Positions 17,499 through 33,346 of a stretch of DNA of 64,000 nucleotides are shown piece by piece. The stretch's first letter is position 1, and each line of letters starts with the position of its first letter. Origin of the DNA: a phage. The stretch lies in assembly GCA_018093385.1 (NCBI GenBank), contig GCA_018093385.1_4808.1, one strand, 5' to 3'. The notes below the pieces were generated by a model. The model did no database searches. It was given only the letters and a program-made list of their open reading frames with translations, and was not told the DNA's origin. Position numbers and translations under genes: made by a program.

Positions 17499-19037
17499 GT
17501 GATCAGTCAATCTCGTTATATTAAAATTGTATCAGGGGTCGGAGCAGGCGCGGCTGTTGCAGTTCGCAAACTGTCGCTTCGCATCATGACTTCCAATACA
17601 GTTCTGCCGCCAGGCATTGTAGCAGAATTTTCAACTGCTGATGCCGTTGGATCATATTTTGGTTTTTCTTCCGAAGAATACAAGCGCGCAGCACTGTATT
17701 TTGGATTCATCAGCAAGCAAATCAACTCGCCTGATTCAATCAGCTTTTCTCGCGTTGTATCCACGGCGATTCCTGCAATGGTTATCGGCGACACTGAGCC
17801 TAAAACGCTTGCTACTTTCCAGGCATTCACTGGCGCTATCTTAAGCATCACTTATGACGGCACAGACTACCTGACTGACGCCATCAACCTTTCAGCGGCA
17901 ACAAGTCTTGCCAACGTAGCGGAACTCTTGGAAACGGCAATCAACACCAAGTTTGCAGCAGAAGGTGGCACGTCGGTGCCTGCACTTGCTGATGCGGAAG
18001 TGTATTGGAATGCCAACACCCAGCAGTTCACTTTGGAAGCCGCTCCGTCGACCGCTGGTGCTGGAAACCTTTCGATTAACGTCACAGGTCAACCGACAGA
18101 CCCATCTCAGGCGCTTGGTTGGACGACTACTGGCACCGTTACGGTTGCTGGACAGGGTGTAGCAAGTCCGGTAGAAGCCATCGCGGCATCTGTGGAGATT
18201 TCCAACAACTTTGGCTCATTCCTTTTCGCTGGAGCAGACCGAACGCTGGAAGAAATCACAGCCGTTGCAGCTTGGACTCACTCGCAGAACAACATGTACA
18301 TGTATCTGTTCTCGACTGCATTCGCCAACATCGGCTCATACTATACCGCGTTGAAAGGTTACTCAGGCGTTGGTATGATGATCCGTGCAACTAACCTCGC
18401 GAATGATTACATCGACCAGGCACCTGCTGAAATTCTTGCGGCGACAAACTATAACACTGTAAATGCAACTCAAAACTATATGTATTATCAGTTTGAAACG
18501 CGAAATGTAACCGTATCGACTGATTCACGCGCAGATACTGCTGATCAAAACCGTGCAAACTATATCGGTGCGACTCAGCAAGCTGGTCAAACTCTCGCGT
18601 TCTTCCAGCGTGGTGTTCTGATGGGCGGGTCTACCGCAGCAGTTGACATGAACACTTATGCCAACGAGATGTGGCTTAAATCTGCTATCACTTCTCAGCT
18701 GTTCAGCATGTTCTTGAATCTTGGTCGCGTGCCTGCAAACGAAGAAGGCAAAGCGACTGTCCAAGCCATGATTCAAGTTGCTGTTGACAATGCGAAGGTT
18801 AACGGCACCATCTCTGTCGGTAAGGCGCTGACGGAAATTCAGAAACAGTACATCACGCAAACCTCCGGTGACAACACTGCTTGGCGGCAGGTTGAGACTA
18901 TCGGTTATTGGTTGACTGTCGATTTTGACACTGAAACCACTTCCGATAACCGCACCGAATACTATGCAACATACACGCTAATCTACTCTAAAGATGATGC
19001 TGTGCGTCGCGTTGAAGGTCGTGACGTTCTTATTTAA
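17499..19037 (+). CDS. tail sheath protein
   Basis: 512 aa ORF directly upstream of tube gene; RBS AAGAGGA with GTG start; size and order typical of contractile tails. Confidence 0.55.
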   Translation: MISQSRYIKIVSGVGAGAAVAVRKLSLRIMTSNTVLPPGIVAEFSTADAVGSYFGFSSEEYKRAALYFGFISKQINSPDSISFSRVVSTAIPAMVIGDTEPKTLATFQAFTGAILSITYDGTDYLTDAINLSAATSLANVAELLETAINTKFAAEGGTSVPALADAEVYWNANTQQFTLEAAPSTAGAGNLSINVTGQPTDPSQALGWTTTGTVTVAGQGVASPVEAIAASVEISNNFGSFLFAGADRTLEEITAVAAWTHSQNNMYMYLFSTAFANIGSYYTALKGYSGVGMMIRATNLANDYIDQAPAEILAATNYNTVNATQNYMYYQFETRNVTVSTDSRADTADQNRANYIGATQQAGQTLAFFQRGVLMGGSTAAVDMNTYANEMWLKSAITSQLFSMFLNLGRVPANEEGKATVQAMIQVAVDNAKVNGTISVGKALTEIQKQYITQTSGDNTAWRQVETIGYWLTVDFDTETTSDNRTEYYATYTLIYSKDDAVRRVEGRDVLI

Positions 19038-19084: not shown

Positions 19085-19552
19085 ATGATTAACGTTTCCG
19101 GTTTTGGCGCTTCGATTCGTTTGGTAGCATCAAACACTTTTCCTAATGGTGTGACACTTTCTGATTTTGCAGATGATGCTGATCCGATTGACGCGCCGGA
19201 CCTGCAAATCTCTGAGGCTGCAATGGGCCTTAACGGTGACTTAGTAGTGTGGAACCGTGCAAACCCGCTTGAAGTAGGTGTGAACATCATCCCTACTTCT
19301 GAAAGTGATGTCAACTTGGACGTTCTTGCAGCTGCAAACCGCGTAGGCAAGCGCAAGAACTCCGCAAAAGATGTGATCACACTTGTGCTGACTTATCCTT
19401 CTGGAATGGTTATCACGCTAAACAAAGGCACCTTGACAACTGGTTCCGTAATTCCTGGCATCCAGTCTCAAGGTCGTGTGAAAACACGTCAATATCGCTT
19501 CAAGTTTGAGAACGTAGTCAAAACTGGCGTGAGCAACCAAGAGATTTTATAA
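19085..19552 (+). CDS. tail tube protein
   Basis: 155 aa immediately after sheath; paralog of 20503-21000. Confidence 0.5.
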   Translation: MINVSGFGASIRLVASNTFPNGVTLSDFADDADPIDAPDLQISEAAMGLNGDLVVWNRANPLEVGVNIIPTSESDVNLDVLAAANRVGKRKNSAKDVITLVLTYPSGMVITLNKGTLTTGSVIPGIQSQGRVKTRQYRFKFENVVKTGVSNQEIL

Positions 19553-19881: not shown

Positions 19882-20234
19882 CAACTCTAACCATTGAAGT
19901 GAACGAAAATAATGACCTTTTTCTACCTGATGGAAGAAACTTAAATATTCTTTCAGGAGAAAAAGCGATGGTGCAAGTAATCAAGGCCGCGCATCAGATG
20001 CGACTTGGTGAAGACTTGTACGATATAGAAAACGGGGTCGATTATTTGGGGACCGTTTTCAAGTCGCCCGTTGACGAAGACGGTGCGCGAAAGTCGATTG
20101 CAGATGCTATTCTGAAGAAAGCAGACGTTGCCGGAATCGACTCATTGACTGTCACCATCCAAAACGGTATCCTTGGATTCACTGCAGAAGTGGTGACTAT
20201 TTATGGCGAACGTATAAAGGTGAGTAATCAATAA
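19878..20234 (+). CDS. hypothetical protein
   Basis: ORF in track, probable TTG start. Confidence 0.4.
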   Translation: MTTLTIEVNENNDLFLPDGRNLNILSGEKAMVQVIKAAHQMRLGEDLYDIENGVDYLGTVFKSPVDEDGARKSIADAILKKADVAGIDSLTVTIQNGILGFTAEVVTIYGERIKVSNQ

Positions 20235-20500
20235 TGGCACAAGTAATTCATTTTGCAAATGGCGTCATGAAATTTGGCGAAAAATTTGAAGACGCATCAG
20301 AGCTGTTTAATAAGAAGGTTGAGCCTGTTACAGAAATCAAAGAGCAGGTCGAAGAAAAGTCCGTTGAACAAAAACTCGATTTTGATTCCATGAGCGTTTC
20401 AGAATTGAAGTCTTACGCCAAAGAAAATGGCATCGACATCAAGGGTCTTTCTTATAAGGATGAAATTCTTGCTGCAGTTAAATCTGCATCTGCGGAGTAA
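20234..20500 (+). CDS. hypothetical protein with C-terminal HeH/Rho-N-like motif
   Basis: SVSELKSYAKENGIDIKGLSYKDEILAAV. Confidence 0.45.
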   Translation: MAQVIHFANGVMKFGEKFEDASELFNKKVEPVTEIKEQVEEKSVEQKLDFDSMSVSELKSYAKENGIDIKGLSYKDEILAAVKSASAE

Positions 20501-20502
20501 AC

Positions 20503-21000
20503 ATGGTCAATATTAGTGGATTTGGCACAAGCATTAGAATTGTCGCTCTTCAATCTTTTCCTGTTGGGCTGAATATCAGTTCTTTGTCTGATGACCAGGA
20601 TTCGCTAATTATTGAGGAAGTTGAATCAGTAGGTTATCAACTTACTTATGACGGCGGCATTTGCATATACGACAAAGCCGCCGTCGTTCGCGTATCCATT
20701 GCGGTCATTCCAAACACTGAAGATGACATAAATCTTAAGCTTTTATTATCTGCCCGTAAAGGTGGATTCAAGTGGTTGCCAATTCAGGATGTGACATCGA
20801 TGCTCATTACATATCCTGACGGTGGAAGGGTGGCATTCTCTAACGGAACGATAATCAGCGGTCCGCTTGGTGACTCCATAGAGCAATCAGGCCGTCGCAA
20901 GACAAACCGATACACATTTGTGTTTGCCAGCTACGGTGGCGCACAGAGCACGTCTCAAGTTGCCAAGGGCGTGGTGCAGAGCATATTGGGGTCCATTTAA
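20503..21000 (+). CDS. tail tube-like paralog
   Basis: N-terminus MVNISGFGTSIRIVA parallels MINVSGFGASIRLVA of 19085 gene; similar length. Confidence 0.5.
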   Translation: MVNISGFGTSIRIVALQSFPVGLNISSLSDDQDSLIIEEVESVGYQLTYDGGICIYDKAAVVRVSIAVIPNTEDDINLKLLLSARKGGFKWLPIQDVTSMLITYPDGGRVAFSNGTIISGPLGDSIEQSGRRKTNRYTFVFASYGGAQSTSQVAKGVVQSILGSI

Positions 21001-21533
21001 TGGCTATCGATTTACTGTCATATAGTCTATCAAACAGAAGCTTCACGATAAAGAGCTTCAACCTTGGAGAAGTATCCACGCTTGGATGGGCCATAGTCAA
21101 CGTCAAAATAAGACTCCAAGCGAAGATATTCAAAAACCAAAGGGAAGACGGCAGCTATATTGTCGATGGCAGAGTAAAGATGCCGCGAATACTCACTGTC
21201 ACCGTGATAGCTCAGACGAAAAGCGCATCAGATGCAATAGCTAAGATGTTGCAAAACAGGTCGACTATATACACAATTAATTCCCGTGGTTTAATATTCG
21301 AACGTATGGTGCTGCAAAATAACAACTTCAGCCAGGACGCTGACAATATAACGTCTCAGCCCATACAATTGGTCTTCCATGAGATATTAACACAGCAGGA
21401 TGTGTCTATTCAAACAGCGCAGGCAGGCGACTCAACAGTAATAGAGCGCGGCATTGCATACATAAAAGAAACTTCTGCCAGCGTCACTGGCGTCGCTACA
21501 AAGGTGATGAATGGTATCAAGGGGATGTTCTGA
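21000..21533 (+). CDS. hypothetical tail protein
   Basis: ORF in track. Confidence 0.4.
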   Translation: MAIDLLSYSLSNRSFTIKSFNLGEVSTLGWAIVNVKIRLQAKIFKNQREDGSYIVDGRVKMPRILTVTVIAQTKSASDAIAKMLQNRSTIYTINSRGLIFERMVLQNNNFSQDADNITSQPIQLVFHEILTQQDVSIQTAQAGDSTVIERGIAYIKETSASVTGVATKVMNGIKGMF

Positions 21534-22093
21534 TGGACTTCGTTTCGATTCTGCTTTCTGGTCAATCTTTGACCATAACGAATGAGTCAACAGGTCTTCC
21601 TGTCTGGACAAGGCTTTCACCTGTTTCTGCAGAAATAACATCCCCAGCAGAAACAACTCAATTCCCTCTTGCTGGTACAGCCATGCAGGTTGTCGAAGTA
21701 TCAAGCACGTCATCAGTAAGCAATTTACAGGCTGCAAAGGTTGTAATGCCAGCCCATATGGCGTTAAACGTAATTTGCAATGACCAGTCTACAATTGAAA
21801 ATATCATAAATTCATTTGATGATGACGAAGTCACATTTTCAATAACTTCACGAAGCATCATTGCCAGTAAAATGTCGATGTCCGACGTTGAAATAACCCA
21901 GTCAGAAGAAAACTTGAATGGAGTCTCAATAGTAATAACCTTCGAGCAAACGTCATTTAGCATTCAAGGAAGCTTCGACCCTAAACAATCTGCAGACGAA
22001 TCATCAAATGGTGTTGCTATTAAAGAACCAGTCAGTTTGACTACAACTGTGAGTTCGTTATATAATAAAATAAAATCAACAGTAGGAATATAA
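21533..22093 (+). CDS. hypothetical tail protein
   Basis: ORF in track. Confidence 0.4.
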   Translation: MDFVSILLSGQSLTITNESTGLPVWTRLSPVSAEITSPAETTQFPLAGTAMQVVEVSSTSSVSNLQAAKVVMPAHMALNVICNDQSTIENIINSFDDDEVTFSITSRSIIASKMSMSDVEITQSEENLNGVSIVITFEQTSFSIQGSFDPKQSADESSNGVAIKEPVSLTTTVSSLYNKIKSTVGI

Positions 22094-22094
22094 A

Positions 22095-22511
22095 ATGAAG
22101 ATCACCAACAAACAAACTGGTCGTACAGTAGAAATTAAAATCAGCAAAATGACTGCGATGGAAGGATGGAATATTCAGCGTCGCTTTGTCGAATTTGCAA
22201 TGTCGAAAGACCCTGCGTTCCGTTCAGAGTATACGATGGAAGTGTTGAGCTTCGCAAAAGTCGAGCTTGATGTGGGCCAAGAAATCCCATTAAGCACTGG
22301 TGCACTAATTGACAACCATCTTGGTGACTGGGAAAACCTTAAAGAAGTCTTCGAAGCAGTCCTCATGGAGAACGGTATAAACCCAGATACTCACGCCGAG
22401 CGTGAAGGCTACTGGGAACAAGCTGGCGGCGAAATGGCTGCAGCATTCATCGGCGAATCGATGCGATTAATCGCGCCATTCCTCAGCGGCGAGACTCCAA
22501 ACAAGGGGTAA
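22095..22511 (+). CDS. putative tail assembly chaperone
   Basis: Position immediately upstream of tape measure gene. Confidence 0.4.
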   Translation: MKITNKQTGRTVEIKISKMTAMEGWNIQRRFVEFAMSKDPAFRSEYTMEVLSFAKVELDVGQEIPLSTGALIDNHLGDWENLKEVFEAVLMENGINPDTHAEREGYWEQAGGEMAAAFIGESMRLIAPFLSGETPNKG

Positions 22512-22514
22512 ACT

Positions 22515-24695
22515 GTGTCTGACTCATTAGAAAAATTTGTGCTTCAATATACGGTGGACTTGAAAGAGTCCATCAATCGTCTTGAGCAATTGCAAGATAA
22601 AGTTGATCAGACAAACAAAAAGGCGAAATCCGCTGGAAAAGATTTCTCTGGAGCATTCAAAGATGTTTTTGGCGAGCTAAAGCCGCTTACTGGTGAGCTA
22701 GGGTCAATTGACGGAATACTTGCGCGGCTGACATATCGTTTTGCCGCGCTTGTTCCTGTGGTAGCAGGATTGGCTGTCGTCGTCAAATCCATCGTTGATG
22801 TTCGAAAAGAATACGAAGCGCAAAGAAAGCTTGGTTTTGAAGCCGGACTGTCTCCAATGGGTGTCGAACAACTACAACGACAGTTGAATGAAAGTTCAGG
22901 TGGCATCCTTGGCGCACAGGGGTCGCGCGATTTAATCAGCAAAGCTTCTAATCTGGCATTCAATGCATACACCAACCCCGATGTGATGAACAAGGACAAC
23001 TTGTTGTTGAACAAGATGGGGACAAGTCCTTTCAACAGTAACGGCGGCATCAAAGACACGAATCAGCTGCTTGATGAAATTGGAACAAAGCTGAGAAGTG
23101 TTAATGAGCAAACCGCTCGTGCCATTGGTGCTTTGGCAGGATTCACGGCTGATGAAGTCCGCGCCCTTCGTGAGCGCAACCAGTCTGTGAAAGAAAGCAC
23201 CCGTATAAGCGACGAAGAAACCGCGAAGCTGCAAAGACAGCAAGCTGCTCTTGAGACTATACGAAATAGTATGGGGCAAATTCAAGAAGATTGGCGGCGT
23301 ATTGAGTTGGTAATTGGTGAAAATGTCATGCCTGCATTCTCGACTCTTGTCAGCAAAACTGCTGATACAGTCGAAGGATTCCAGATGATGTTTCAGAGAA
23401 TGTCTGACGGATGGAGCGAATTTGTCGACAACTTCATCGCTGACTTGAAACATCCGTTTGACAAGCAGGCCGCTGTCAACGAACGTCACGAAAGAGCGGT
23501 TGACCGATGGATCACCCAAATGGCTGATGGCGATGTTAAACGCCAAAGGAATCAAGAACAGAACGCTGCTGAACAACGTTCTGCACAGGCTCTTTTTACT
23601 CGTGATATAAATCTTTTTTCAAGTGCTGTGTCAACCTTTGCTGGCGTGATTGATGAGCGTCAAGCTTGGGCGGCATGGGCAGGTGAAATCGGGCGCAGCG
23701 CAGGGCAATCCGCGATGCCTGGAACACCAGCATTGAATACTGGCGCGACCGTAGGGAATAATCTTGGGTCAGGGAATCCGACAGCATATGACTCAATATA
23801 TGAGGAAGCTTCAAAACGCTATGGCATACCTGTAGCGATGATGAAGGCTGTAACTGAAGTCGAATCTGGATTCAATCCAAATGCTGTGAGCGGAGCAGGC
23901 GCGACTGGTTTGATGCAAATCATGCCTTCTAACTTCAAGGGTCTTGGAATAACAGATGGTAATGATCCTCGACAAAACATTATGGGCGGCGCTCAACTTT
24001 TGAAAGAGTATCTTAACGCCGCCAACGGCGATTGGAATCTTGCGCTGACGATGTATCACGGCGGCTACGACCGAAGCGGCTGGGGCAAGAACACACGCGC
24101 GTATCCTGGAAAGGTGATGGCCGCTCTCGACCGACAATCCAATGGCGAGTATGCCACGGCAGCGCCGCAAGGTGCACCAGTTACTCCAGTACTTAGCGGT
24201 AGCGGAGCGGAAGCGCCAAAGGGCCGTTATGCACCAGTACAAGGTCAATCGCGCCAAACGGTGCAATACAGGCAATTGCAAGAAGCCATTGCAGGATACC
24301 TGAACGTACCAGTTGAGCAGTTGATGCAGGGACAAGTCAACAAAGGTGATATTGACTTTGCTCAAACTTACCTTAAGCTTGGCACGCAAAGGGATTATAT
24401 TAAAAACATGCAACTGGCTTCAACTCCAGGTGTAAGACCGAACATTCAAGCCGAAGCTATGAAAAACGCTCGTCTTGCTGCATTCCAACTTGAAGCATTT
24501 CAGAAATACGGCGGCGACCTTTCCGCGAATAGTCGACCTGGTGGGCGTGATATTACTATGGGTCAGAAAAACGTTGTCATCAACGTCAACGGCGCTCAAG
24601 ACCCACGCAGCACGGCATTCGAAACGAAACGAGTGCTTGAACAAGATGATATAAACGACATAAACAACCTTACTGCTACACCTTTGAAGTGGTGA
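22515..24695 (+). CDS. tape measure protein with soluble lytic transglycosylase domain
   Basis: 726 aa; SLT motif EVESGFNPNAVSGAGATGLMQIMP ... YHGGY; helical N-terminal part. Confidence 0.75.
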   Translation: MSDSLEKFVLQYTVDLKESINRLEQLQDKVDQTNKKAKSAGKDFSGAFKDVFGELKPLTGELGSIDGILARLTYRFAALVPVVAGLAVVVKSIVDVRKEYEAQRKLGFEAGLSPMGVEQLQRQLNESSGGILGAQGSRDLISKASNLAFNAYTNPDVMNKDNLLLNKMGTSPFNSNGGIKDTNQLLDEIGTKLRSVNEQTARAIGALAGFTADEVRALRERNQSVKESTRISDEETAKLQRQQAALETIRNSMGQIQEDWRRIELVIGENVMPAFSTLVSKTADTVEGFQMMFQRMSDGWSEFVDNFIADLKHPFDKQAAVNERHERAVDRWITQMADGDVKRQRNQEQNAAEQRSAQALFTRDINLFSSAVSTFAGVIDERQAWAAWAGEIGRSAGQSAMPGTPALNTGATVGNNLGSGNPTAYDSIYEEASKRYGIPVAMMKAVTEVESGFNPNAVSGAGATGLMQIMPSNFKGLGITDGNDPRQNIMGGAQLLKEYLNAANGDWNLALTMYHGGYDRSGWGKNTRAYPGKVMAALDRQSNGEYATAAPQGAPVTPVLSGSGAEAPKGRYAPVQGQSRQTVQYRQLQEAIAGYLNVPVEQLMQGQVNKGDIDFAQTYLKLGTQRDYIKNMQLASTPGVRPNIQAEAMKNARLAAFQLEAFQKYGGDLSANSRPGGRDITMGQKNVVINVNGAQDPRSTAFETKRVLEQDDINDINNLTATPLKW

Positions 24696-24699
24696 TAAT

Positions 24700-25572
24700 T
24701 TGAAAAAGAGAATCCTTAAAGTCACCTTATCTATGCCGGATGGCACAAGCCAAGTGCTTGATGAAGGATTGATGCTTAGATGCCGAATCAAAAAGGCAGC
24801 ACTTTCCGTGCAAAATAAGGCCACAATCGAAGTCGCAGGATTGACAGGGTACTTGAGAGAGTACCTGCTTTCCAACTTCACCGCATTCAACAAACGTCTG
24901 CGTGATCAAGGCCAATTGGCGGCGAATTATGTCAACGTAACAATTGAAGCTGGATATAGAGAAGGCAACGTTGTTAGTAGCAACTTAGTCTACAAGGGGC
25001 AAGTCACAACGGTCGAGATAACAGCGCCGCCGCCGAACATCGTCATACGCATCACTTGCTACACCAACCAGATAAACAGGACTAAGTTTATCACTCAAGC
25101 TGCACCGTCAAACCCAACATTCAAAGAGTTTGTGGAGTGGTCGGCAAAGCAAATGGATATTGATACTGTTATATGCGATACTTCGATTAACAATCAGCGC
25201 CTTGTTAACCCAGGCCGCACAACATATGTTGCAGCCGCCTTGCTGCTTGAGATTCAGAACTATCAAAGGAACTCTATTGCGGCATATATCGATGATGATA
25301 CGCTCATCGTCAAGGATAAAGACAAAATTCTGAATCCAGAACAGATAACGGTGATTGAGGAATTTGTCGGAATACCGATGTGGAACGAGTGGGGCGCTGA
25401 CTTCACTTGCATGTATAACGCGGATTTGAAGCTTGCCCAAGGTGTGAAATTCAAATCAGTCTTAAACCCAAGCTTGAACGACACCACATTTGTCATCATG
25501 CAACTTGAATATGATTTAGCAAGTCGTGATGATATATTTACGGTGACGGGCGGCGTTGCACCATCGGCCTGA
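24700..25572 (+). CDS. putative baseplate/distal tail protein
   Basis: ORF after tape measure; probable TTG start. Confidence 0.4.
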   Translation: MKKRILKVTLSMPDGTSQVLDEGLMLRCRIKKAALSVQNKATIEVAGLTGYLREYLLSNFTAFNKRLRDQGQLAANYVNVTIEAGYREGNVVSSNLVYKGQVTTVEITAPPPNIVIRITCYTNQINRTKFITQAAPSNPTFKEFVEWSAKQMDIDTVICDTSINNQRLVNPGRTTYVAAALLLEIQNYQRNSIAAYIDDDTLIVKDKDKILNPEQITVIEEFVGIPMWNEWGADFTCMYNADLKLAQGVKFKSVLNPSLNDTTFVIMQLEYDLASRDDIFTVTGGVAPSA

Positions 25573-25574
25573 AT

Positions 25575-26096
25575 ATGAGAAAGAATAAAGTAATTGAGCT
25601 GTTTGGAGTTACTTATGAAATACACCAATTCAGCGCAATAGACGCGTTTGAAATGGTTGATGCGATAAGCATATTAACTCCACTTGAATTATTAAGTGAA
25701 TGTCATGTTATTAAATATGACGGAACTAAAGTCAGATTAAACTCTGAGAAGGCCATCAGTGAAGAAGTGAAAAGTGTGCCAAATCACTTGCCGCCCAACC
25801 TTGTATTGAAAGTTCTAATGGAAGCGGTAAAGAAGCACAATTTTGGATTCCTCAGTGATTGGAAAGGCACTAAGATTCCAAATAGATTCTTGGCTGACGT
25901 CCCGACCGTAGAGCCTAATTATCTTGAGCCGATGGTTGCAAGCCTAATAAACAATGGTCTTGCTTCGTTAAAAGAATTGGAAGAATATTATTCATTGCGT
26001 GATGCATTCGCTATGTTTGATGGACTAATAGCAAAATCACTTAATGAAGCCTACTCAAACGAAGCTGCCATTAAAGAATCAAAGTCAAATCGCTAA
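25575..26096 (+). CDS. hypothetical baseplate protein
   Basis: ORF in track. Confidence 0.4.
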   Translation: MRKNKVIELFGVTYEIHQFSAIDAFEMVDAISILTPLELLSECHVIKYDGTKVRLNSEKAISEEVKSVPNHLPPNLVLKVLMEAVKKHNFGFLSDWKGTKIPNRFLADVPTVEPNYLEPMVASLINNGLASLKELEEYYSLRDAFAMFDGLIAKSLNEAYSNEAAIKESKSNR

Positions 26097-26153
26097 AATA
26101 TTGCTTATAGACTCCTTATAGATTATAATTTGTTGATCAGATATAAGGAGTCT

Positions 26154-26882
26154 ATGATGGCAGAGAAGTTAACTCAACTTACAAGCCCCAACCAAACTGA
26201 CAAATCAAGTATGTTTGCCGCGCTGCAGGGAATGCTGGACCGTGGCAAGTATACCACTGACGGCATGATTCCTGCACAAGTAATATCTTATGACCGCAAA
26301 CAGAATTTAGCAGTCATAAAGCCTGTTATTCATTTCGTAAGTCTTGATGATAAACCAGTGGAGCGTCAACCTCTGGTGTCAATTCCTGTATTGGCAATCG
26401 GCGGCGGCGGCTTTGTAATCAACTTTCCTTTGAAAGAAGGTGATTTGGGCTGGATATTCGCTGGCGACCGCGAGTTGTCGACATTCCTTGAAGAATTGAA
26501 GCCGACCGCGCCCACCAATGGTCGCGCGAAAACTTTCGCTGATGGACTGTTCATACCGGATGTATTTCGAAAATACACCATAAGCGGAGAGGATGCAGGC
26601 TCAATGGTAATTCAGTCCCTCAGCGGCGCTGTACGAATTGCATTAAGTGATGACTCGATAAACATAACCGCATCAGCTGGGGTAAACGTGAAAACACCAA
26701 TCACCACTATCGACCAACAACTGATAGTGAATGGAAAGGCAACATTCAATGGTGGTATAGAAGGGAAAGAAGGAACGACGGCAACGCTTCCGACTGGCAC
26801 CACAATCGGCGGCACAAATGTATCCACTCACGGGCACATAGGTAACGGACCTGGAAACAGAACTGGGGATATGATAGAATGA
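26154..26882 (+). CDS. putative baseplate central spike protein
   Basis: OB-fold-like region with GGGG motif (VLAIGGGGFVINFPLKEGDLGWIF); C-terminal STHGHIGNGPGN; RBS AAGGAG before ATG 26154. Confidence 0.45.
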   Translation: MMAEKLTQLTSPNQTDKSSMFAALQGMLDRGKYTTDGMIPAQVISYDRKQNLAVIKPVIHFVSLDDKPVERQPLVSIPVLAIGGGGFVINFPLKEGDLGWIFAGDRELSTFLEELKPTAPTNGRAKTFADGLFIPDVFRKYTISGEDAGSMVIQSLSGAVRIALSDDSINITASAGVNVKTPITTIDQQLIVNGKATFNGGIEGKEGTTATLPTGTTIGGTNVSTHGHIGNGPGNRTGDMIE

Positions 26883-28150
26883 GTGCACAATATTCTTACA
26901 TAGTAAGCACTGGTGTAATAACCATCGACACAGCCGATTTGCTGGCTGACGTTCAAAGTGAATGGATTGAGTCATTAGGGGTCGGGCTTGACGTTGATGC
27001 ATCGACACCGCAAGGCACCCTAATCGCGACAGAGACTTTGGCAAGAACTTCAGTCATGAAGAACAACGCCGAGCTGGGAAGTCTCATCAACCCTAATTAT
27101 TCATATGGCGTATACCTTGATGCCATCGCGGCATTGCTTGGTATTGAGCGAACGAAAAACATCAGCACGATGTTGAAAGGAATTACCGCAGAAGGAACGC
27201 CGCTGTTGGAAATTCCTGCTGGAAGTTTGCTGACGGATTCAAACGGCACATACTGGTATGTTCTTGAAGACGTTCAAATCACTTCGACTGGCAAGACAAG
27301 CAACATGACTCTTGCATCAAAAGATTATGGCTCATTTACTGTTGCCCCTGATGAAGAGTTTACAGTGGTGCAAGGTTATGACGTCATCGGATGGTCAAGA
27401 ACGTATTCAACATCATCAACGACGACTGTGCCAGGGACGCAATACATGGGCGACGGAGCGTTAAAGGCCGCACGCGTTAAGCGTCTTTACCAGCAGGGCA
27501 TTGCATCGCTTGGTGCCATTCGCGCTCGCGCCATGTCTGTCGACGGCGTGGAATCTGTGATGGTCGTGGAGAACGACACGGGATTGCCTGGAACGGTACG
27601 CGGCATCACCTTTTCAACGCCTAACGGTGTTTGGGTGTGCGCAAGCGGAACTTTCGATAAGCAAGTTTTTGCTGAGACCATTTTCAAAGCGAAAATGGGC
27701 GGCCAGCCGTGGGACTTTGGTGCTGACAACCAGGGCAATCCAGTCAACTCTCCTGATGGAATAGAAGTTGTCGACGAAGAATCACAACTGTCTTATTTTG
27801 TGAAGTTCAACACTGCAGTAATATATGACTTGTATGTCGATATTACTGTTTCAAGAGGCACCGCAACCGCCGATGCGGAATCTATTATTGCCGCTGTGTT
27901 GAATTACGGCAATGGCAATTTTAACGGTGAGCAAGGGTATACAGTAGGTCAATCTCAATCTTCTTTTGAAATTGCTTCAGCAGTGTCTTGCGAGTATCCA
28001 GGCTTGTATATTAAAGATTGCAAAATTGCAGCAGTTAAAAGCGGACAGGCAGCGCCAAATTATCCATCCGATTACGGCAGCGAGTGGATTGCAAATCCTT
28101 GGGATAAGGCGAATACTATGCGCGGCTTCATCAACGTTAAATTTGTGTGA
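26879..28150 (+). CDS. baseplate J-like protein
   Basis: 423 aa after spike gene; order typical of baseplate wedge. Confidence 0.45.
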   Translation: MSAQYSYIVSTGVITIDTADLLADVQSEWIESLGVGLDVDASTPQGTLIATETLARTSVMKNNAELGSLINPNYSYGVYLDAIAALLGIERTKNISTMLKGITAEGTPLLEIPAGSLLTDSNGTYWYVLEDVQITSTGKTSNMTLASKDYGSFTVAPDEEFTVVQGYDVIGWSRTYSTSSTTTVPGTQYMGDGALKAARVKRLYQQGIASLGAIRARAMSVDGVESVMVVENDTGLPGTVRGITFSTPNGVWVCASGTFDKQVFAETIFKAKMGGQPWDFGADNQGNPVNSPDGIEVVDEESQLSYFVKFNTAVIYDLYVDITVSRGTATADAESIIAAVLNYGNGNFNGEQGYTVGQSQSSFEIASAVSCEYPGLYIKDCKIAAVKSGQAAPNYPSDYGSEWIANPWDKANTMRGFINVKFV

Positions 28151-28156
28151 GGAACT

Positions 28157-30895
28157 ATGCAAAAGTTTGACACAAACCTGTTGCAAAACCTTAAGTGGAT
28201 GCAGAACAATGCACCAAACATTACGTCTTTGGTGCAAAAGAAAAGTGACTGGTATGAAAGATACCAAGATCAGTTTTGGGCTGACTGGTACAATAACATT
28301 TTTAACATTGACACTTGTGATGCAATGGGCATTTATATTTGGTGCGACATTCTTTGCATACCAAGAGACTTTGTGGACTTAAGCAATTATGAGCACAACT
28401 GGGCGTTTGGACCGACGCGCGACAACTTTGAAGGTGCGGACAACATCGGCGGCAACTTCTTTGGTGCTGGCGGGAAGGTTGTCAAGAATATCGAAGAAGC
28501 GCGCATACTTCTTAAGCTTCGTTATCTGACGCTTACAAGTGATGGCCGCATCGAAAGTATCAACCGCATGCTTAAGTGGATTTTCAACCGTGGAGAGGCT
28601 TGGGATTACTCTTCATCACGCTACGCATATGTGACCGACAATACTCAAGGCGCGGTGTCTTCGTCTGAATCAACCAATGGCTCATTCCTTCTGTACGACT
28701 GGCAAGGGTCAACTGAGATTCAGCATGATTATAAGCAGATACTTTTAAGCCATGGCAACAACGCCGGACTGACCATCAGCGGAGTGTCAGGCACCGTGTC
28801 ACGGATGGCGCACCCAGATTGGTACTCATGGGGAAATGGTTCCGGCACAGGGCTTGTCGGCGGCGACACCAGACAGTATGGTGGGCCTGATTACTATGGG
28901 CAGTTGTGTGGTGATTACCCAGGCGAGGCCATAGAGAATTTTGCCAACGCAGTAAGGGTCATCAAGACGGCTTCAAGCGGTGAGCCTGTGTATTCTTTGG
29001 CCAATAATCCAAGTGCCAAATCAATTTCGCTTCCTTCGCAGGCTGGCGTCAACGTTTGCTATAGCTTCTACATAAAGGTGCTTTCTGAAAACGTCGCTTC
29101 TGTTTCTGTTACAGAGAATAGTGATGCATCGAGTAATGGAAAGCTGTTTGACCCCGTCACTGGCCAGTTCAACTTGGACCCGTCATTGAGCTATTTCATC
29201 AAAGGCAAATTCGATGGAGTAAGAAGGGAATCAAACCGTGGTGGCATAAAAGCAATTGGCGGCGATTGGTATCGAATCTGGATTGTAGAGCAGACGGCAA
29301 CCGCTGCTTCTGGAGTAAGTACCAGCTTTTCAATAGAGTTGAAGGCGACTGCCGCTGGATCAACTCAAACTCGTGAATTGCCTGAAGGGTCTGATGCTCT
29401 TTTGTTTGGATACTCGATTTGCGTCTGCGACCCTGTTCAGAATCCAAATGGACCTGAGCCTTATTTTTATGGAACGCAAAACCCTCCTTCTGACGGAACA
29501 GCAATCCTGTCTGTAACGGCGGGAACACTCAATAACATCTCCTGTGCAAACGGACCGCTGACGACAAGAAACGGTGTAGTTGGCGAGTCATTCATGCAAC
29601 CTGGCTCATCACTTGCATACTCTGGCTCAATCGGCGGCCACCCGTACCCAGGGAACGCCACGCTGATTGCAGAGACTGATGGAATCAGACGCTCATGGAA
29701 CGTTAGCAGGCTGGATGGAGTACCGCCGCCGCCGACCGCCGACTATTACATGGAATACGTCATCGGACCTTATTTCGCCAACAACCTGTCTGACAACTTT
29801 AAGACGCTAGTTGGTGACAGGAATGAAGGATTCTTGCCAGCAAATGCCGGAATACGCTGGCAGCTTTACCAAGAAGTCGCAGACTTATCTGATATTGATT
29901 TGACTGTCAGCGACATAACAGACACGCGCGTAGGATTTGAAACGGAAGGTGTTGCGTGGATTAACACTGACGGTATCATCAGAGTTGGCGGCATCAACGA
30001 GTGGCCGCTGAACAACTTCAACGGTGTGATACGCCAGCTTGAATCTTTGAAAGGTGTAAACCAGGTCGTCGACGGCGCGCTTGTCAACGACTATTCAATC
30101 TCAAAAGCATCAAGAGATGACTTTGGTCGTGAAATACCACGCGCGGCAATCACTAACTATTGGCGCTACACACAGCCAAATGACGGTACATCTTTTGGCA
30201 ATATCATTGAGGATGGCGCAAACACTGTCACAGCGACGCCAATCAGCGGTGTGCCCAACCAGTTCCCATCATTCAAGCTTTCCGCTACAATAGGGACTGT
30301 GCCAACGTCCGGTTATGCACGCGCTGTACTTGCTACTAAATACACTGGCACCCTGACTGGCCCTTTGTCATTTATCGCAATAGTCAAAAACAACACGGTT
30401 AACGGTCAAAAACTTTTTGTAACTGTACCGGATGGGATGGGTGGCTATATCCCTAAATTCTACAACATAGGCGCAGGTGATTTGCAACGTATCGAAATTG
30501 ACCTTGCCGCTGAGATTGTTGAAGGCGCTACCTGGGATGGATCAACAGGCGGCATCAGCATCGGTTTGATATCAGGGAAAGACTTGCCGACCGAAGTTGG
30601 TACGACTCTTGAACTTGATATTTTAAGCTTGATGCTTGTGTCTGGTAGTACGATGAATGCGCTTGCAATTTCAACAAGCGAAGATTTCGCAAAGAAAACT
30701 GCGACTTCTATATACATCAAAAACCCAGGATCACTTGCCACTGGAGTTCAATTGATTGCTTCTAATGGTGATGTTGTAGCAACAGTAAACTTTCCGAGAA
30801 GTGCTGCTGGCGGTTATGTTTCAAGCATGAACATAACTGACTTAACTGGTGATTGGGCATCGACCCTTTTATCAAAAATTAAATACATCGTGTAG
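28157..30895 (+). CDS. large baseplate/tail fibre-associated structural protein
   Basis: 912 aa between baseplate J-like gene and tail fibre gene. Confidence 0.45.
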   Translation: MQKFDTNLLQNLKWMQNNAPNITSLVQKKSDWYERYQDQFWADWYNNIFNIDTCDAMGIYIWCDILCIPRDFVDLSNYEHNWAFGPTRDNFEGADNIGGNFFGAGGKVVKNIEEARILLKLRYLTLTSDGRIESINRMLKWIFNRGEAWDYSSSRYAYVTDNTQGAVSSSESTNGSFLLYDWQGSTEIQHDYKQILLSHGNNAGLTISGVSGTVSRMAHPDWYSWGNGSGTGLVGGDTRQYGGPDYYGQLCGDYPGEAIENFANAVRVIKTASSGEPVYSLANNPSAKSISLPSQAGVNVCYSFYIKVLSENVASVSVTENSDASSNGKLFDPVTGQFNLDPSLSYFIKGKFDGVRRESNRGGIKAIGGDWYRIWIVEQTATAASGVSTSFSIELKATAAGSTQTRELPEGSDALLFGYSICVCDPVQNPNGPEPYFYGTQNPPSDGTAILSVTAGTLNNISCANGPLTTRNGVVGESFMQPGSSLAYSGSIGGHPYPGNATLIAETDGIRRSWNVSRLDGVPPPPTADYYMEYVIGPYFANNLSDNFKTLVGDRNEGFLPANAGIRWQLYQEVADLSDIDLTVSDITDTRVGFETEGVAWINTDGIIRVGGINEWPLNNFNGVIRQLESLKGVNQVVDGALVNDYSISKASRDDFGREIPRAAITNYWRYTQPNDGTSFGNIIEDGANTVTATPISGVPNQFPSFKLSATIGTVPTSGYARAVLATKYTGTLTGPLSFIAIVKNNTVNGQKLFVTVPDGMGGYIPKFYNIGAGDLQRIEIDLAAEIVEGATWDGSTGGISIGLISGKDLPTEVGTTLELDILSLMLVSGSTMNALAISTSEDFAKKTATSIYIKNPGSLATGVQLIASNGDVVATVNFPRSAAGGYVSSMNITDLTGDWASTLLSKIKYIV

Positions 30896-30905
30896 AGGAA
30901 CGGCA

Positions 30906-32693
30906 ATGCCAACACTTATTAACAGACCTTTCGCGCAAAGCGGTGATGTATCCGTGGTGCCGGATGCAAGTCCAAGCGGTTATGTGAACTTCCAGCGCGG
31001 CTACACCCCTGACTATGCACTTGCGCTAGAAGCCGGAAACGTAGCCGCGAAAGCAGTTGAACGTGAGTCGATGAACTGGTTGCTGAATCTGATCACCGAC
31101 AACCTTATGTTCATACAGGACCACGGCGCTCAACAGTATTTCTCGTCTGACTTGAAGCCAGATGGATACCCGAAAAATGCCATCGTTGTCAGCAACTCTG
31201 GCACCCCTTCAGCGCCTGAATGGCGCATTTTCCAGAGTGTGGTAGACGGCAACACCAGCGCAGTCCCAGCTAACGGCGAAACGGAATCTTGGCAGGAATT
31301 GACGCTGCCTAGCGAAGCGAGAAAATATATTCCTATGCCTGCTGGCGGCGATGCGCAAAACCCGTATTTTGTTCGCGGACTGATTTCAAACTTTGTGGAC
31401 TTTGATAATATCACGACTTCCACAACTATTGTCATTCAATCTGATGCCGTTGCCGCTCTCTGCTCTAACATCCCGAATGCGGTTGGTGCGACGAAGGTTG
31501 CAGGACGTCTCCAGGTTTGCGCTTGGCAGGTTGATGCGCAGACTTTCGCCCTGCAACAATACACGTCAATGAACGGATATGTTTTCACCCGCTCTTATAC
31601 GTCTGGTGCTTGGAGTGCTTGGATTCAAAATGCAACTGTTCAAGACGTGCAAATCGGCACGCCGAATCTTGCATCAGGTAAAGGCGCACAAGATATAATC
31701 CTTACCGTTCCGGCAGGTTATGCATGGCCGCCGTCAGCAGGTAGTCGCCTGACAATTGTCAATGATGTAACGACTACCGGACCTGTTACCGTGACCATTG
31801 GTGCAAACAAAGTTGCAGTCCTTGGATTCGACGGCGGCGAGCTGCCAGCAGGGTCCATCGTCGGCCTTCTTCCTTTTACTATTATTTATGACGGCACCGT
31901 TTGGCGTCTTCTTCAAGCATTCGGCGCGGCGCAAATCGGTGTCGATGCTAGTGAGCCGCAACAGTTTGTTACAAAGCGCCAACTCGATGCTTTGGCCGCG
32001 AAGTTGATCACTATGGGTGATGTGTTCGAAGTCGGTGAGACTCGATTCTTGACTAATGGCACCAACCCAAATACTAAACTGGGCGCTTACGGTCAGGTAT
32101 GGACCAGATTGCCTGATAACATGGTCATCAGGACGTCTGGCACGGCAAGAAACGGTCTTGACACTGGAGGTGCAGACTCTGTTACTCTTACTGCCGCCAT
32201 GCTTCCTCTGCACAATCACAGCGTTAACATAACTACGCGACAAAGTGGTCCATGGTCCAATACCACTGGAGACGCAGGCAACCATAACCACACAGGCGAT
32301 ACCAGTCAAAACGGTGCTCACGTGCACGGAATGGATTCGGCAGGCAACCACCACCATGACAGTAGCTGGGGTGAGGCGAATACGAATGATGCGCGGTATG
32401 GCGTGTATGATGGGACGCACAACAACTTCGGAAGTCGAAAGGGCGGCGACTGGGACAACTATAAATACAACACCTCAACTAACGGCAACCACGTTCACAA
32501 TATTCAATCTTCTGGGTCACACACTCATGGGTTGAATATAAATTACGCTGGCAATCACAGCCATGGATATACCCTCCCCGCTCACACTCACGATGTGGTC
32601 GGTAACACTGGCGATGCAGGGCAGTCCGTCCCAACGGCTGTTTCAACTCTGCCGCGATATGTCGTCTTGAACGGCTGGTACAGAAGCGCATAA
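30906..32693 (+). CDS. tail fibre protein with His-rich C-terminal region
   Basis: N-terminus MPTLINRPFAQSGD typical of tail fibre N-domains; C-terminus has repeated H-x-H units (NHNHTGD, HVHGMD, NHHHDSS, HVHNIQ, HTHGLN, HSHGYT, HTHDVV). Confidence 0.6.
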   Translation: MPTLINRPFAQSGDVSVVPDASPSGYVNFQRGYTPDYALALEAGNVAAKAVERESMNWLLNLITDNLMFIQDHGAQQYFSSDLKPDGYPKNAIVVSNSGTPSAPEWRIFQSVVDGNTSAVPANGETESWQELTLPSEARKYIPMPAGGDAQNPYFVRGLISNFVDFDNITTSTTIVIQSDAVAALCSNIPNAVGATKVAGRLQVCAWQVDAQTFALQQYTSMNGYVFTRSYTSGAWSAWIQNATVQDVQIGTPNLASGKGAQDIILTVPAGYAWPPSAGSRLTIVNDVTTTGPVTVTIGANKVAVLGFDGGELPAGSIVGLLPFTIIYDGTVWRLLQAFGAAQIGVDASEPQQFVTKRQLDALAAKLITMGDVFEVGETRFLTNGTNPNTKLGAYGQVWTRLPDNMVIRTSGTARNGLDTGGADSVTLTAAMLPLHNHSVNITTRQSGPWSNTTGDAGNHNHTGDTSQNGAHVHGMDSAGNHHHDSSWGEANTNDARYGVYDGTHNNFGSRKGGDWDNYKYNTSTNGNHVHNIQSSGSHTHGLNINYAGNHSHGYTLPAHTHDVVGNTGDAGQSVPTAVSTLPRYVVLNGWYRSA

Positions 32694-32701
32694 GGTGATT
32701 T

Positions 32702-33346
32702 ATGATTAATGCAAACGTAATATCTAAAGGGACCGGATGCAGCATGGATGTTGCTGAAAAATGGGTCGACCCCTTCAAGCAGGCTTGTGAGCACTACGGA
32801 ATCAAAAGCAAGAATGCCATCGCGGCGCTGCTTGCAAACGTAGGAGTGGAAACAGGCAGTCTGAAGACCTTTGTGGAAAACCTGAATTATTCCGCTCAAG
32901 GTCTTGCTAATACGTGGCCTAGCCGTTACAGCGCCAGCGGTCGTTTCGGTGGCGCACCAAACTCCTTGGCATTGTCGATTGCCCGTAAACCAATGGAAAT
33001 CGCCAATAATACATATGCAAACCGAATGGGAAATGGTTCGGTAGCATCTGGCGACGGTTGGAAGTACCGTGGCCGTGGTGCCATTCAGCTGACTGGAAAG
33101 GACAACTATGCAGAGTATTCAAAGCAATCAGGGTATGACGCATTGAATAACCCTGACATTTTGACTGAGCCGAAATACATTGCTGACAGCGCGGCATGGT
33201 TCTTCAAGAACAGCGGTTGCATTCCACTTGCCGATGCGGGCGCATTTGATTCGACCGTGAAGCGGATTAACGGGGCCGCGCCAAATACGGCTAACCATGG
33301 GGATTTGCGACGGAAGCGTTACAAGGGAGCACTAGCAGTTATGTAA
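32702..33346 (+). CDS. endolysin, glycoside hydrolase family 19-like
   Basis: YRGRGAIQLTGKDNYAEY motif characteristic of GH19; RBS AAGGTGA. Confidence 0.75.
   Translation: MINANVISKGTGCSMDVAEKWVDPFKQACEHYGIKSKNAIAALLANVGVETGSLKTFVENLNYSAQGLANTWPSRYSASGRFGGAPNSLALSIARKPMEIANNTYANRMGNGSVASGDGWKYRGRGAIQLTGKDNYAEYSKQSGYDALNNPDILTEPKYIADSAAWFFKNSGCIPLADAGAFDSTVKRINGAAPNTANHGDLRRKRYKGALAVM

Follow-up and report, generated by a model that had tools for sequence, protein, structure and literature searches.

What does the long gene at positions 22515..24695 (+) of this phage DNA encode: a protein that measures the tail, an enzyme that cuts peptidoglycan, or both in one polypeptide? The original prediction, a tape measure protein (TMP) carrying a lytic transglycosylase (SLT) domain, is better than most deposited annotations, since most records omit the tape measure and call the protein 'lytic tail protein', 'endolysin' or 'internal core protein'. 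The window, i.e., the whole stretch of 64,000 nucleotides that was analysed, belongs to a Wifcevirus, an E. coli myovirus of the PB1-like type with a contractile tail. Our results make it highly probable that the product is the tail TMP of this Wifcevirus and that it holds an SLT domain, to which we ascribe, by inference, a role in injection.

The gene and its product

The open reading frame begins with a GTG codon, 7-8 nt downstream of an AAGGGG sequence, and encodes a protein of 726 aa. This start is supported by the N-terminus itself, as its MSD..L..F.LQY pattern is conserved in the orthologues of 7 other genera. The protein is 99.9% identical to its counterpart in phage TH32, has relatives of at least 95% identity in 29 phage records, and is matched by PHROG 2013, 'lytic tail protein' (E=4.6e-139). 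A Cas9_PI_C match in Pfam (17.9 bits, for a cutoff of 27) was discarded as sub-threshold noise, and four antisense ORFs of 150-214 aa, within or overlapping the gene, were taken as spurious, none of them having a PHROG match.

Identification of the tape measure protein

The tape measure label of the original prediction is upheld by the alignment of the protein, collinear from end to end, with gp41 of phage Pa193, with which synteny, helix content and the ratio of tail length to residues agree. Pa193 gp41, deposited as 'Tape measure protein' (PDB 9b45_a), matches the 726-aa protein in four collinear stretches (E=1.9e-73). In the cryo-EM structure, its C-terminus forms a trimer inside the tail lumen and is attached to the tail tip; only the 19 C-terminal residues 840-858 were resolved, and discontinuous density is seen along the length of the lumen (PMC11456595). 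By orthology, the Wifcevirus protein would likewise be located in the tail lumen as a trimer. The E217 cryo-EM paper (PMC10329688) contains no mention of 'tape measure', 'gp40' or 'transglycosylase', so that E217 brings no independent support for the TMP reading.

The gene is located in the tail module, between the tube/baseplate-cap genes and the hub gene, as it is in 7 other genera, and the order tube-like, ripcord-1, ripcord-2, small ORF, TMP, hub, small ORF, tail tip, wedge J is the same in 8 genera. In the AF2 model, almost the whole protein is helical (helices 233-311 and 319-378 among others), with a single compact, high-confidence lysozyme-like domain amid the helices. Its length is also in agreement with the size of the tail. 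The 858 aa of the Pa193 protein for a tail of ~1,300 Å (~130 nm) correspond to 1.52 Å/residue, from which a tail of 110 nm is predicted for 726 aa; measured tails are of 107 nm (vB_Eco4M-7) and 120 nm (ECML-117), i.e., 1.47-1.65 Å/residue, this scaling being a two-point comparison of published negative-stain and cryo-EM values and not a mutational one.

The helical region aa 143-290 (22941..23384, +) weakly resembles the core domain of canonical TMPs. TIGR01760 (tape_meas_TP901) scores 24.2 bits against the 726-aa protein (E=1.6e-5), below its curated cutoff of 28.8 bits, and reaches E≤0.001 in 6 of the 57 family members (best 2.2e-8). PHROG TMP families 1533, 8125, 12506 and 2276 also match weakly (E=7.6e-6 to 7.5e-5), and the Pfam search of the protein gave no match to any TMP family. 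These sub-threshold scores could alternatively point to a tail-associated lysin, lodged at or in the baseplate and the tail lumen while another factor determines tail length, and this would suit both the name 'lytic tail protein' used in most records and the 19 residues to which the resolved Pa193 homologue is limited. We nevertheless consider it very unlikely: no other long helical ORF is present in the tail module among the window ORFs, the residue/tail-length ratio agrees between two genera, the gene occupies the site expected of a TMP gene, from the tube/baseplate-cap genes to the hub, and density, even if discontinuous, extends along the Pa193 tail lumen (PMC11456595).

Identification as a TMP is accompanied by mass spectrometry of phage preparations, in which 30 peptides covering 54% of the vB_Eco4M-7 orthologue (99.4% identical) were detected. 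As these preparations contained non-structural proteins too, e.g., helicase and endolysin, such a detection alone is no proof of virion association.

The SLT domain and its catalytic glutamate

The Pfam search proposed with the original prediction gives a match to SLT (PF01464) well above its cutoff, over aa 430-529 (E=2.8e-24; 85.4 bits vs 21.3 bits; profile positions 4-110 of 117). The domain as a whole, a lysozyme-like fold of the family-1 lytic transglycosylases, extends over aa 425-545 (23787..24149, +) and is modelled with a pLDDT >90 throughout. When this model is compared with the PDB by Foldseek, the top 49 matches are to Slt70, Slt/LtgA, MltE, MltF, MltD and MltC (E down to 5e-5, probability 1.00), all of them family-1 lytic transglycosylases. 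The lytic transglycosylase domain is thus recovered by profile, by fold and by every sequence motif, catalytic glutamate included.

The motif EVESGFNPNAVSGAGATGLMQIMP is present at aa 448-471, and its back-translated pattern has one match, at 23856-23884, vs 0 expected in shuffles. Its placement in the C-terminal third of the protein has to be amended: along the 726 aa, the motif falls at 61.7-64.9% and the domain at 59-73%, thereby straddling the middle and C-terminal thirds instead of lying inside the last one.

The predicted catalytic residue is E450 of the E-S motif, encoded by the GAA codon at 23862..23864 (+). Its counterpart in P. aeruginosa Slt (5ohu_A) is E503, and the sequence deposited for the inactive E503Q mutant has a Q in the same column; E450 further aligns with the glutamate of 'IES' in MltC and with that of 'TES' in gp16, which we take to be E37 of T7. 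E450-S451, G465-L-M-Q468, M513-Y-H-G-G517 and Y530 are all present, and E450 is invariant across the 8 aligned genera. The catalytic glutamate, whose loss would have spoken against the domain, is present in the 726-aa protein and kept in 54 of the 57 members; the same count applies to ES, GLMQ and Y514, as it does to G465, L466, Q468 and Y530 taken singly. We infer that the domain is enzymatically active and would work in DNA injection. A point against the proposed packaging is that the tube lumen would not obviously accommodate three folded copies of the domain next to one another.

Three relatives carry a different module in place of the SLT cassette. GC content is 0.50-0.55 across the cassette vs about 0.46-0.49 elsewhere in the gene, a difference too small to argue for its recent acquisition.

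Virion enzyme, endolysin or internal core protein

The presence of a peptidoglycan-cutting domain has led to two other readings of the protein in the databases. In the first one, it is a phage endolysin that works from inside the cell once infection draws to its end: one record (phage F13) annotates the protein as 'endolysin', and the vB_Eco4M-7 paper lists the protein under 'host lysis'. It is effectively refuted, as a chain of 726 aa consisting mostly of non-enzymatic helix is encoded inside the tail module with no adjoining holin or spanin, and the C-terminus of the Pa193 homologue is part of the virion (PMC11456595). Furthermore, a separate GH19-type endolysin gene is found outside the TMP gene, at 32702..33346 (+; Pfam Glyco_hydro_19, E=3.9e-7, 30.6 bits vs a 25.5-bit cutoff); its WFC orthologue is annotated endolysin, and an Rz-like spanin is annotated near the orthologous region of WFC. 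The presence of this dedicated enzyme shows that lysis is not the task of the SLT protein.

The second one is that of a capsid-stored internal core or ejection protein like T7 gp16, in line with the 'internal (core) protein' label of several records and with the similarity of aa 420-576 to gp16 8-170 (E about 1e-5). Both proteins would indeed bring an SLT domain within the virion, presumably to cut peptidoglycan at genome entry. This similarity is however confined to the SLT domain, which is N-terminal in the podovirus gp16, while the present phage has the sheath, tube and baseplate of a myovirus, and the Pa193 homologue is located in the tail lumen (PMC11456595). Storage in the capsid is thus hardly credible, and a TMP with an embedded SLT domain is again preferred.

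Other conserved regions of the protein

Apart from the SLT domain, three regions of the TMP stand out. The stretch aa 76-94, FAALVPVVAGLAVVVKSIV (22740..22796, +), is a hydrophobic, transmembrane-like helix with the highest Kyte-Doolittle window of the protein (mean 2.36 over 19 aa); its hydrophobicity is kept in 8 of 8 aligned genera, and it corresponds to the start of helix 77-110 in the AF2 model. The C-terminal helical region aa 574-726 (24234..24692, +), of which aa 574-721 align with Pa193 gp41 703-853, is predicted to anchor the protein to the tail tip and the hub.

Conservation within the family is highest in a non-catalytic stretch: aa 366-397, NLFSSAVSTFAGVIDERQAWAAWAGEIGRSAG (23610..23705, +), a 32-residue Ala/Gly/Trp-rich motif, F..V..FA..D..QA.AAWAG..G...G. 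In the alignment of the family, none of the 57 members departs from F368, V372, A384, A386, A387, W388, A389, G390 or G393, and mean column identity is 0.88 at aa 379-393. The motif is 76% identical between the E. coli and Pseudomonas phages, vs 28-29% for the rest of their TMPs, is restricted to PB1-like phages (355 records), and is kept even in the three relatives whose SLT cassette is replaced. One tentative possibility, which we hold to be rather doubtful, is that this stretch, and not the SLT active site, is the indispensable core of the TMP and a so-far undescribed element of myovirus TMPs. It might be a tight-packing or glycine-zipper-like segment, serving either as a membrane channel or plug, or as a recognition site for a chaperone or the tube initiator.

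Proposed mechanism and comparison with known systems

During assembly, the mostly alpha-helical chain, at about 1.5 Å/residue, would set the length of the tail at about 110 nm. Upon sheath contraction, the tail tip would leave and the TMP would be driven out into the periplasm with its C-terminus leading. Once there, its SLT domain (aa 425-545) could cut the MurNAc-GlcNAc bond of peptidoglycan by means of its single catalytic glutamate, E450, and the wall could thereby be opened locally to let through the tube or DNA conduit. Next, the passage through the inner membrane may be formed with the help of the hydrophobic helix aa 76-94 and possibly also of the aa 366-397 motif.

Pa193 gp41, from a Pbunavirus, is a full-length orthologue of the Wifcevirus protein. 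In it, the SLT domain is found at the corresponding place in the chain (aa 491-582 of Pa193), and the two have in common the conserved motif QAWAAWAGEIG, the region predicted to anchor the C-terminus and the genes on either side. Pa193 gp41 differs by its host, Pseudomonas vs E. coli, by an identity of only 28-29%, and by its size, the Wifcevirus TMP being 132 residues shorter (726 vs 858 aa), mainly in two variable linkers; this shortening matches the shorter tail. With the bacterial enzymes of the same family (Slt70/Slt, MltC, MltE, MltF and MltD; PF01464, GH23), the domain has in common the lysozyme-like fold, E-S, GLMQ and an AYNxG-type motif (MYHGG in Wifcevirus). These enzymes are however periplasmic proteins or lipoproteins, whereas the present domain is predicted to lie inside a virion TMP, and identity is 16-24%.

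In T7, the lytic transglycosylase domain of gp16 is needed mainly under suboptimal conditions. Peptidoglycan-hydrolase motifs or lytic transglycosylase domains are also described in siphovirus TMPs, namely Tmp of mycobacteriophage TM4 (PMC1796659) and the TMPs of enterococcal phages (PMC10194240). They too are reported to have a lytic cassette embedded in the TMP that conditionally aids infection, but they belong to non-contractile tails, other hosts and other scaffold families.

As the original prediction had it, the arrangement is a known one: a putative transglycosylase domain of the TMP is already mentioned in the Pa193 paper (PMC11456595). A TMP with an SLT domain is thus ordinary, and its discovery value is little, since near-identical proteins are present in 29 sequenced phages and the Pa193 orthologue has already been described. 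The present analysis rather allows 'tape measure protein with SLT domain' to replace the inconsistent labels of this protein in Wifcevirus and PB1-like phages ('endolysin', 'internal core protein', 'MltF', 'lytic tail protein'), and the fixed cassette position and hyper-conserved motif are usable for engineering or mechanistic work on therapy-relevant phages.

Neighbouring genes

Two ORFs precede the TMP gene. The first one, at 21533..22093 (+), encodes a ripcord-2 baseplate component, as indicated by its matches to Pfam Gp38_E217 (E=1.8e-71), to PDB 9b45_V (gp39, Ripcord-2, E=1.3e-27) and to 8eon_D (E217 gp38). An annotation in Burkholderia phage Maja, 'frameshifted tape measure chaperone', would make this ORF a frameshifted chaperone; it conflicts with cryo-EM, the orthologue being ripcord-2 in two structures, and this reading was rejected. 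No frameshifted chaperone pair is evident from the profile and PDB matches of the two upstream ORFs.

The second one, at 22095..22511 (+), lies directly upstream of the TMP gene and is a conserved partner of 138 aa (PHROG 4627, unknown function), whose position is conserved in 7 of 7 other genera. It has no match in Pfam, NCBIfam or the PDB, and its orthologue vB_Eco4M-7_56 is absent from the vB_Eco4M-7 mass spectrometry table. At a guess, it could be a candidate TMP assembly chaperone.

Downstream of the TMP gene, the baseplate (tail) hub is encoded at 24700..25572 (+; Pfam E217_GP41, E=3.4e-118). It is followed at 25575..26096 (+) by a conserved ORF of 173 aa (PHROG 4774, unknown), which has no match in Pfam, NCBIfam or the PDB, is not seen in virion structures and weakly matches PHROG 20369, 'tail assembly chaperone' (E=7.4e-4); it is possibly an assembly factor. 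The tail tip or puncturing spike, the predicted partner of the TMP C-terminus, is encoded next, at 26130..26882 (+), and matches the Pa193 gp44 tail tip (PDB 9b45_g, E=3.1e-54) as well as 8eon_F and 4ru3_A; the WFC annotation starts this gene at the ATG at 26157.

Lytic transglycosylase domain of the tape measure protein

The original prediction that the tail tape measure protein (TMP) of the window carries a lytic transglycosylase (SLT) domain is confirmed once its position is slightly corrected, and its interpretation is supported. As it had also said, the arrangement is already known, both from lytic cassettes in TMPs generally and, for this protein family, from gp41, the TMP of Pseudomonas phage Pa193. 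The TMP ORF (22515-24695, +) begins with GTG and encodes 726 aa. AAGGGG is found 7-8 nt 5' of this GTG, a start that is credible because the N-terminus is kept in aligned orthologues from seven other genera. The predicted SLT motif, EVESGFNPNAVSGAGATGLMQIMP, corresponds to aa 448-471; its first ten residues, back-translated in degenerate form, have a single match in the window (23856-23884) and none in 100 shuffles. The proposed check with the Pfam SLT profile (PF01464) gives a match well above cutoff (aa 430-529, E=2.8e-24, 85.4 bits vs 21.3). The motif is present in TMP, but does not lie inside the C-terminal third: motif (62-65% of the length) and domain (59-73%) straddle the middle and C-terminal thirds.

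The predicted catalytic Glu, E450, whose loss had been named as counter-evidence, is retained. Together with S451 and Y514, it is invariant in an eight-genus alignment and, among 57 TMP family members drawn from a search of 5.8-billion proteins, E450, S451, G465, L466, Q468, Y514 and Y530 are each present in 54. E450 is aligned to residue 503 of P. aeruginosa Slt (5ohu_A), and the deposited "inactive mutant E503Q" (6fcq) has Q in exactly this column. When the TMP model is compared with the PDB using Foldseek, the top matches are all family-1 lytic transglycosylases (Slt70, Slt, LtgA, MltE, MltF, MltD and MltC). E450 is also aligned to the glutamates of the "IES" motif of MltC and the "TES" motif of gp16; these catalytic residues are E217 in E. 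coli MltC and E37 in T7 gp16.

Tape measure identity

The tape measure label is borne out by collinearity with Pa193 gp41, gene order, tail length scaling and a helical model. Among PDB sequences, 9b45 chain a ("gp41 Tape measure protein", 858 aa, E=1.9e-73) matches best, and the whole protein is spanned by four collinear blocks, in which aa 1-282, 342-403, 422-538 and 574-721 of TMP correspond to aa 1-282, 372-433, 484-600 and 703-853 of gp41. Homology shows the predicted protein to be an orthologue of a TMP lying in the tail lumen, with its C-terminus anchored to the tail tip. Residues 491-582 of gp41 have been described as a putative transglycosylase domain (PMC11456595). In Pa193, 858 aa for a tail of ~1,300 Å amount to 1.52 Å per residue, a ratio at which 726 aa predict a 110 nm tail; the measured tails of the Wifcevirus phages vB_Eco4M-7 and ECML-117 are 107 and 120 nm (PMC7048862). 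In this two-genus comparison of published values, tail length scales with TMP length as expected for a ruler.

The AlphaFold2 model (57-sequence alignment, mean pLDDT 69.5) is almost all helix, with long helices at 233-311 and 319-378, a single compact high-confidence domain (aa 425-545) and disordered linkers (391-421 and 548-577); aa 76-94 form a strongly hydrophobic helix. At the sequence level, canonical TMP models match only weakly: TIGR01760 (aa 143-290, E=1.6e-5) scores 24.2 bits, below its 28.8-bit cutoff, and reaches E<=0.001 in 6 of the 57 relatives (best 2.2e-8), four PHROG TMP families match with E about 1e-5, and the Pfam search matched no Pfam TMP family. The vB_Eco4M-7 orthologue (99.4% identical) has been detected by MS in phage preparations (79 kDa, 30 peptides, 54% coverage), as have 24 peptides of the ECML-117 orthologue; since these preparations also held some non-structural proteins (PMC7048862), this detection is supportive, not decisive.

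By tblastn against phage records, TMP is 99.9% identical to proteins of Escherichia virus TH32, vB_EcoM_SP13 and F13, and 96.7-99.4% identical to those of WFC, WFH, ECML-117, FEC19, vB_Eco4M-7, Mansfield and BASEL phages Bas98-101. These closest matches are of the genus Wifcevirus, E. coli myoviruses of ~68-72 kb. Full-length orthologues are found at 54-55% identity in Pantoea phages Kyle and PA1, at 42-43% in Serratia MyoSmar-like phages and Erwinia phage TropicalSun, and at 25-32% in Burkholderia BcepF1-like, Xanthomonas/Xylella Carpasina-like, Pseudomonas PB1-like and a Salmonella phage. Database labels for this protein are inconsistent (lytic tail protein, lytic transglycosylase with or without "soluble" or "membrane-bound", endolysin, internal (core) protein), and among phage records only Burkholderia phage Maja has "tape measure protein". 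A role as endolysin is ruled out by a separate GH19-type endolysin encoded in the window (32702-33346, +; match to Pfam Glyco_hydro_19 above cutoff), corresponding to WFC gp052 "endolysin", near which an Rz-like spanin is annotated in WFC. The reading as an internal core protein is rejected too, the likeness to T7-type gp16 being limited to the SLT domain.

Proposed mechanism and possible cassette exchange

Drawing on established knowledge of TMPs and virion-borne lytic transglycosylases, we consider it highly probable that this TMP orthologue sets tube length, leaves the tube, cleaves peptidoglycan via E450 and contributes to a conduit. During assembly, a trimeric, mostly helical TMP chain would set the length of the tube. 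The lumen would have to accommodate three SLT domains; for Pa193, an unfolded packaged state has been proposed (PMC11456595). Once the sheath has contracted and the tail tip has been lost, TMP would exit C-terminus first, and the SLT domain would fold or be exposed in the periplasm and use E450 to cut glycan strands. Part of an inner-membrane conduit could come from the N-terminal hydrophobic helix and perhaps further segments. From the analogy to T7 gp16 and TM4 Tmp (PMC1796659), SLT activity is expected to be conditionally, not absolutely, required.

Conservation in the family peaks not in the SLT active site but in NLFSSAVSTFAGVIDERQAWAAWAGEIGRSAG (aa 366-397, window 23610-23705), where all 57 relatives, those without SLT among them, share nine invariant residues; mean column identity is 0.88 over aa 379-393. 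This motif, found in PB1-like phages only (355 records), has 76% identity when E. coli and Pseudomonas phages are compared, vs 28-29% for the whole proteins, and is modelled by AlphaFold2 as helix-break-helix with low confidence. Three relatives from the protein database search (P0052, P0054 and P0057) retain the orthologous scaffold and this motif, with another cassette at the place of SLT. The replacement has no Pfam match; its PHROG relatives are 873 ("endolysin"), 7182 ("tail injection transglycosylase") and 2276, a TMP family. This suggests a fixed site in the TMP scaffold at which one lytic cassette is swapped for another.

Tail module

The neighbours of TMP correspond one to one with the Pa193 and E217 baseplate cap: sheath (17499-19037; DUF3383, PHROG tail sheath), tail tube (19085-19552, +) and baseplate tube (20503-21000, +), both Pfam E217_Gp32, ripcord-1-like (21000-21533; Gp38_E217/Dit-like), ripcord-2 (21533-22093, +; 9b45_V, E=1.3e-27), hub (24700-25572, +; E217_GP41, E=3.4e-118), tail tip (26130-26882, +; 9b45_g, E=3.1e-54) and baseplate J wedge (26879-28150; Baseplate_J). 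This order is kept in all seven of the other genera examined.

The two tube-type proteins are paralogous; PHROGs and RefSeq label them, and the ripcord proteins, "tail fiber protein", and the Pfam description of E217_Gp32 likewise reads "Tail fiber protein gp32". In Burkholderia phage Maja, the ripcord-2 orthologue and the next ORF are annotated as a frameshifted "tape measure chaperone" (L004 1999-2984), a reading contradicted for 21533-22093 by the Pa193 and E217 cryo-EM structures, where this protein is the ripcord-2 baseplate component. The hub starts with TTG at 24700, 5 nt past the TMP stop, and the E217_GP41 profile fits from its first position; the RefSeq annotation of the WFC hub, which begins with an ATG further in (at the equivalent of 24733), is probably too short.

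In every genus checked, the TMP-hub pair lies between two conserved ORFs of 138 aa (22095-22511, +) and 173 aa (25575-26096, +), neither with a Pfam, NCBIfam or PDB match. As the solved virion structures lack them, and the MS table of vB_Eco4M-7 lacks their orthologues, both are candidate assembly factors, possibly tail assembly chaperones. The 138-aa ORF shares the TMP reading frame, with just TAA and ACT between them. Midway in the tail module, an ORF of 88 aa (20234-20500, +) has a SAP-domain match (E=8e-6, 25.8 bits, cutoff 23.9), SAP being a putative DNA-binding motif that is unexpected among baseplate genes. Downstream, two large tail-fibre ORFs (28157-30895 and 30849-32693, +) encode 912 and 614 aa, the second with many HxH repeats near its C-terminus; WFC has another layout in this region, in keeping with published descriptions of variable receptor-binding proteins in Wifcevirus.
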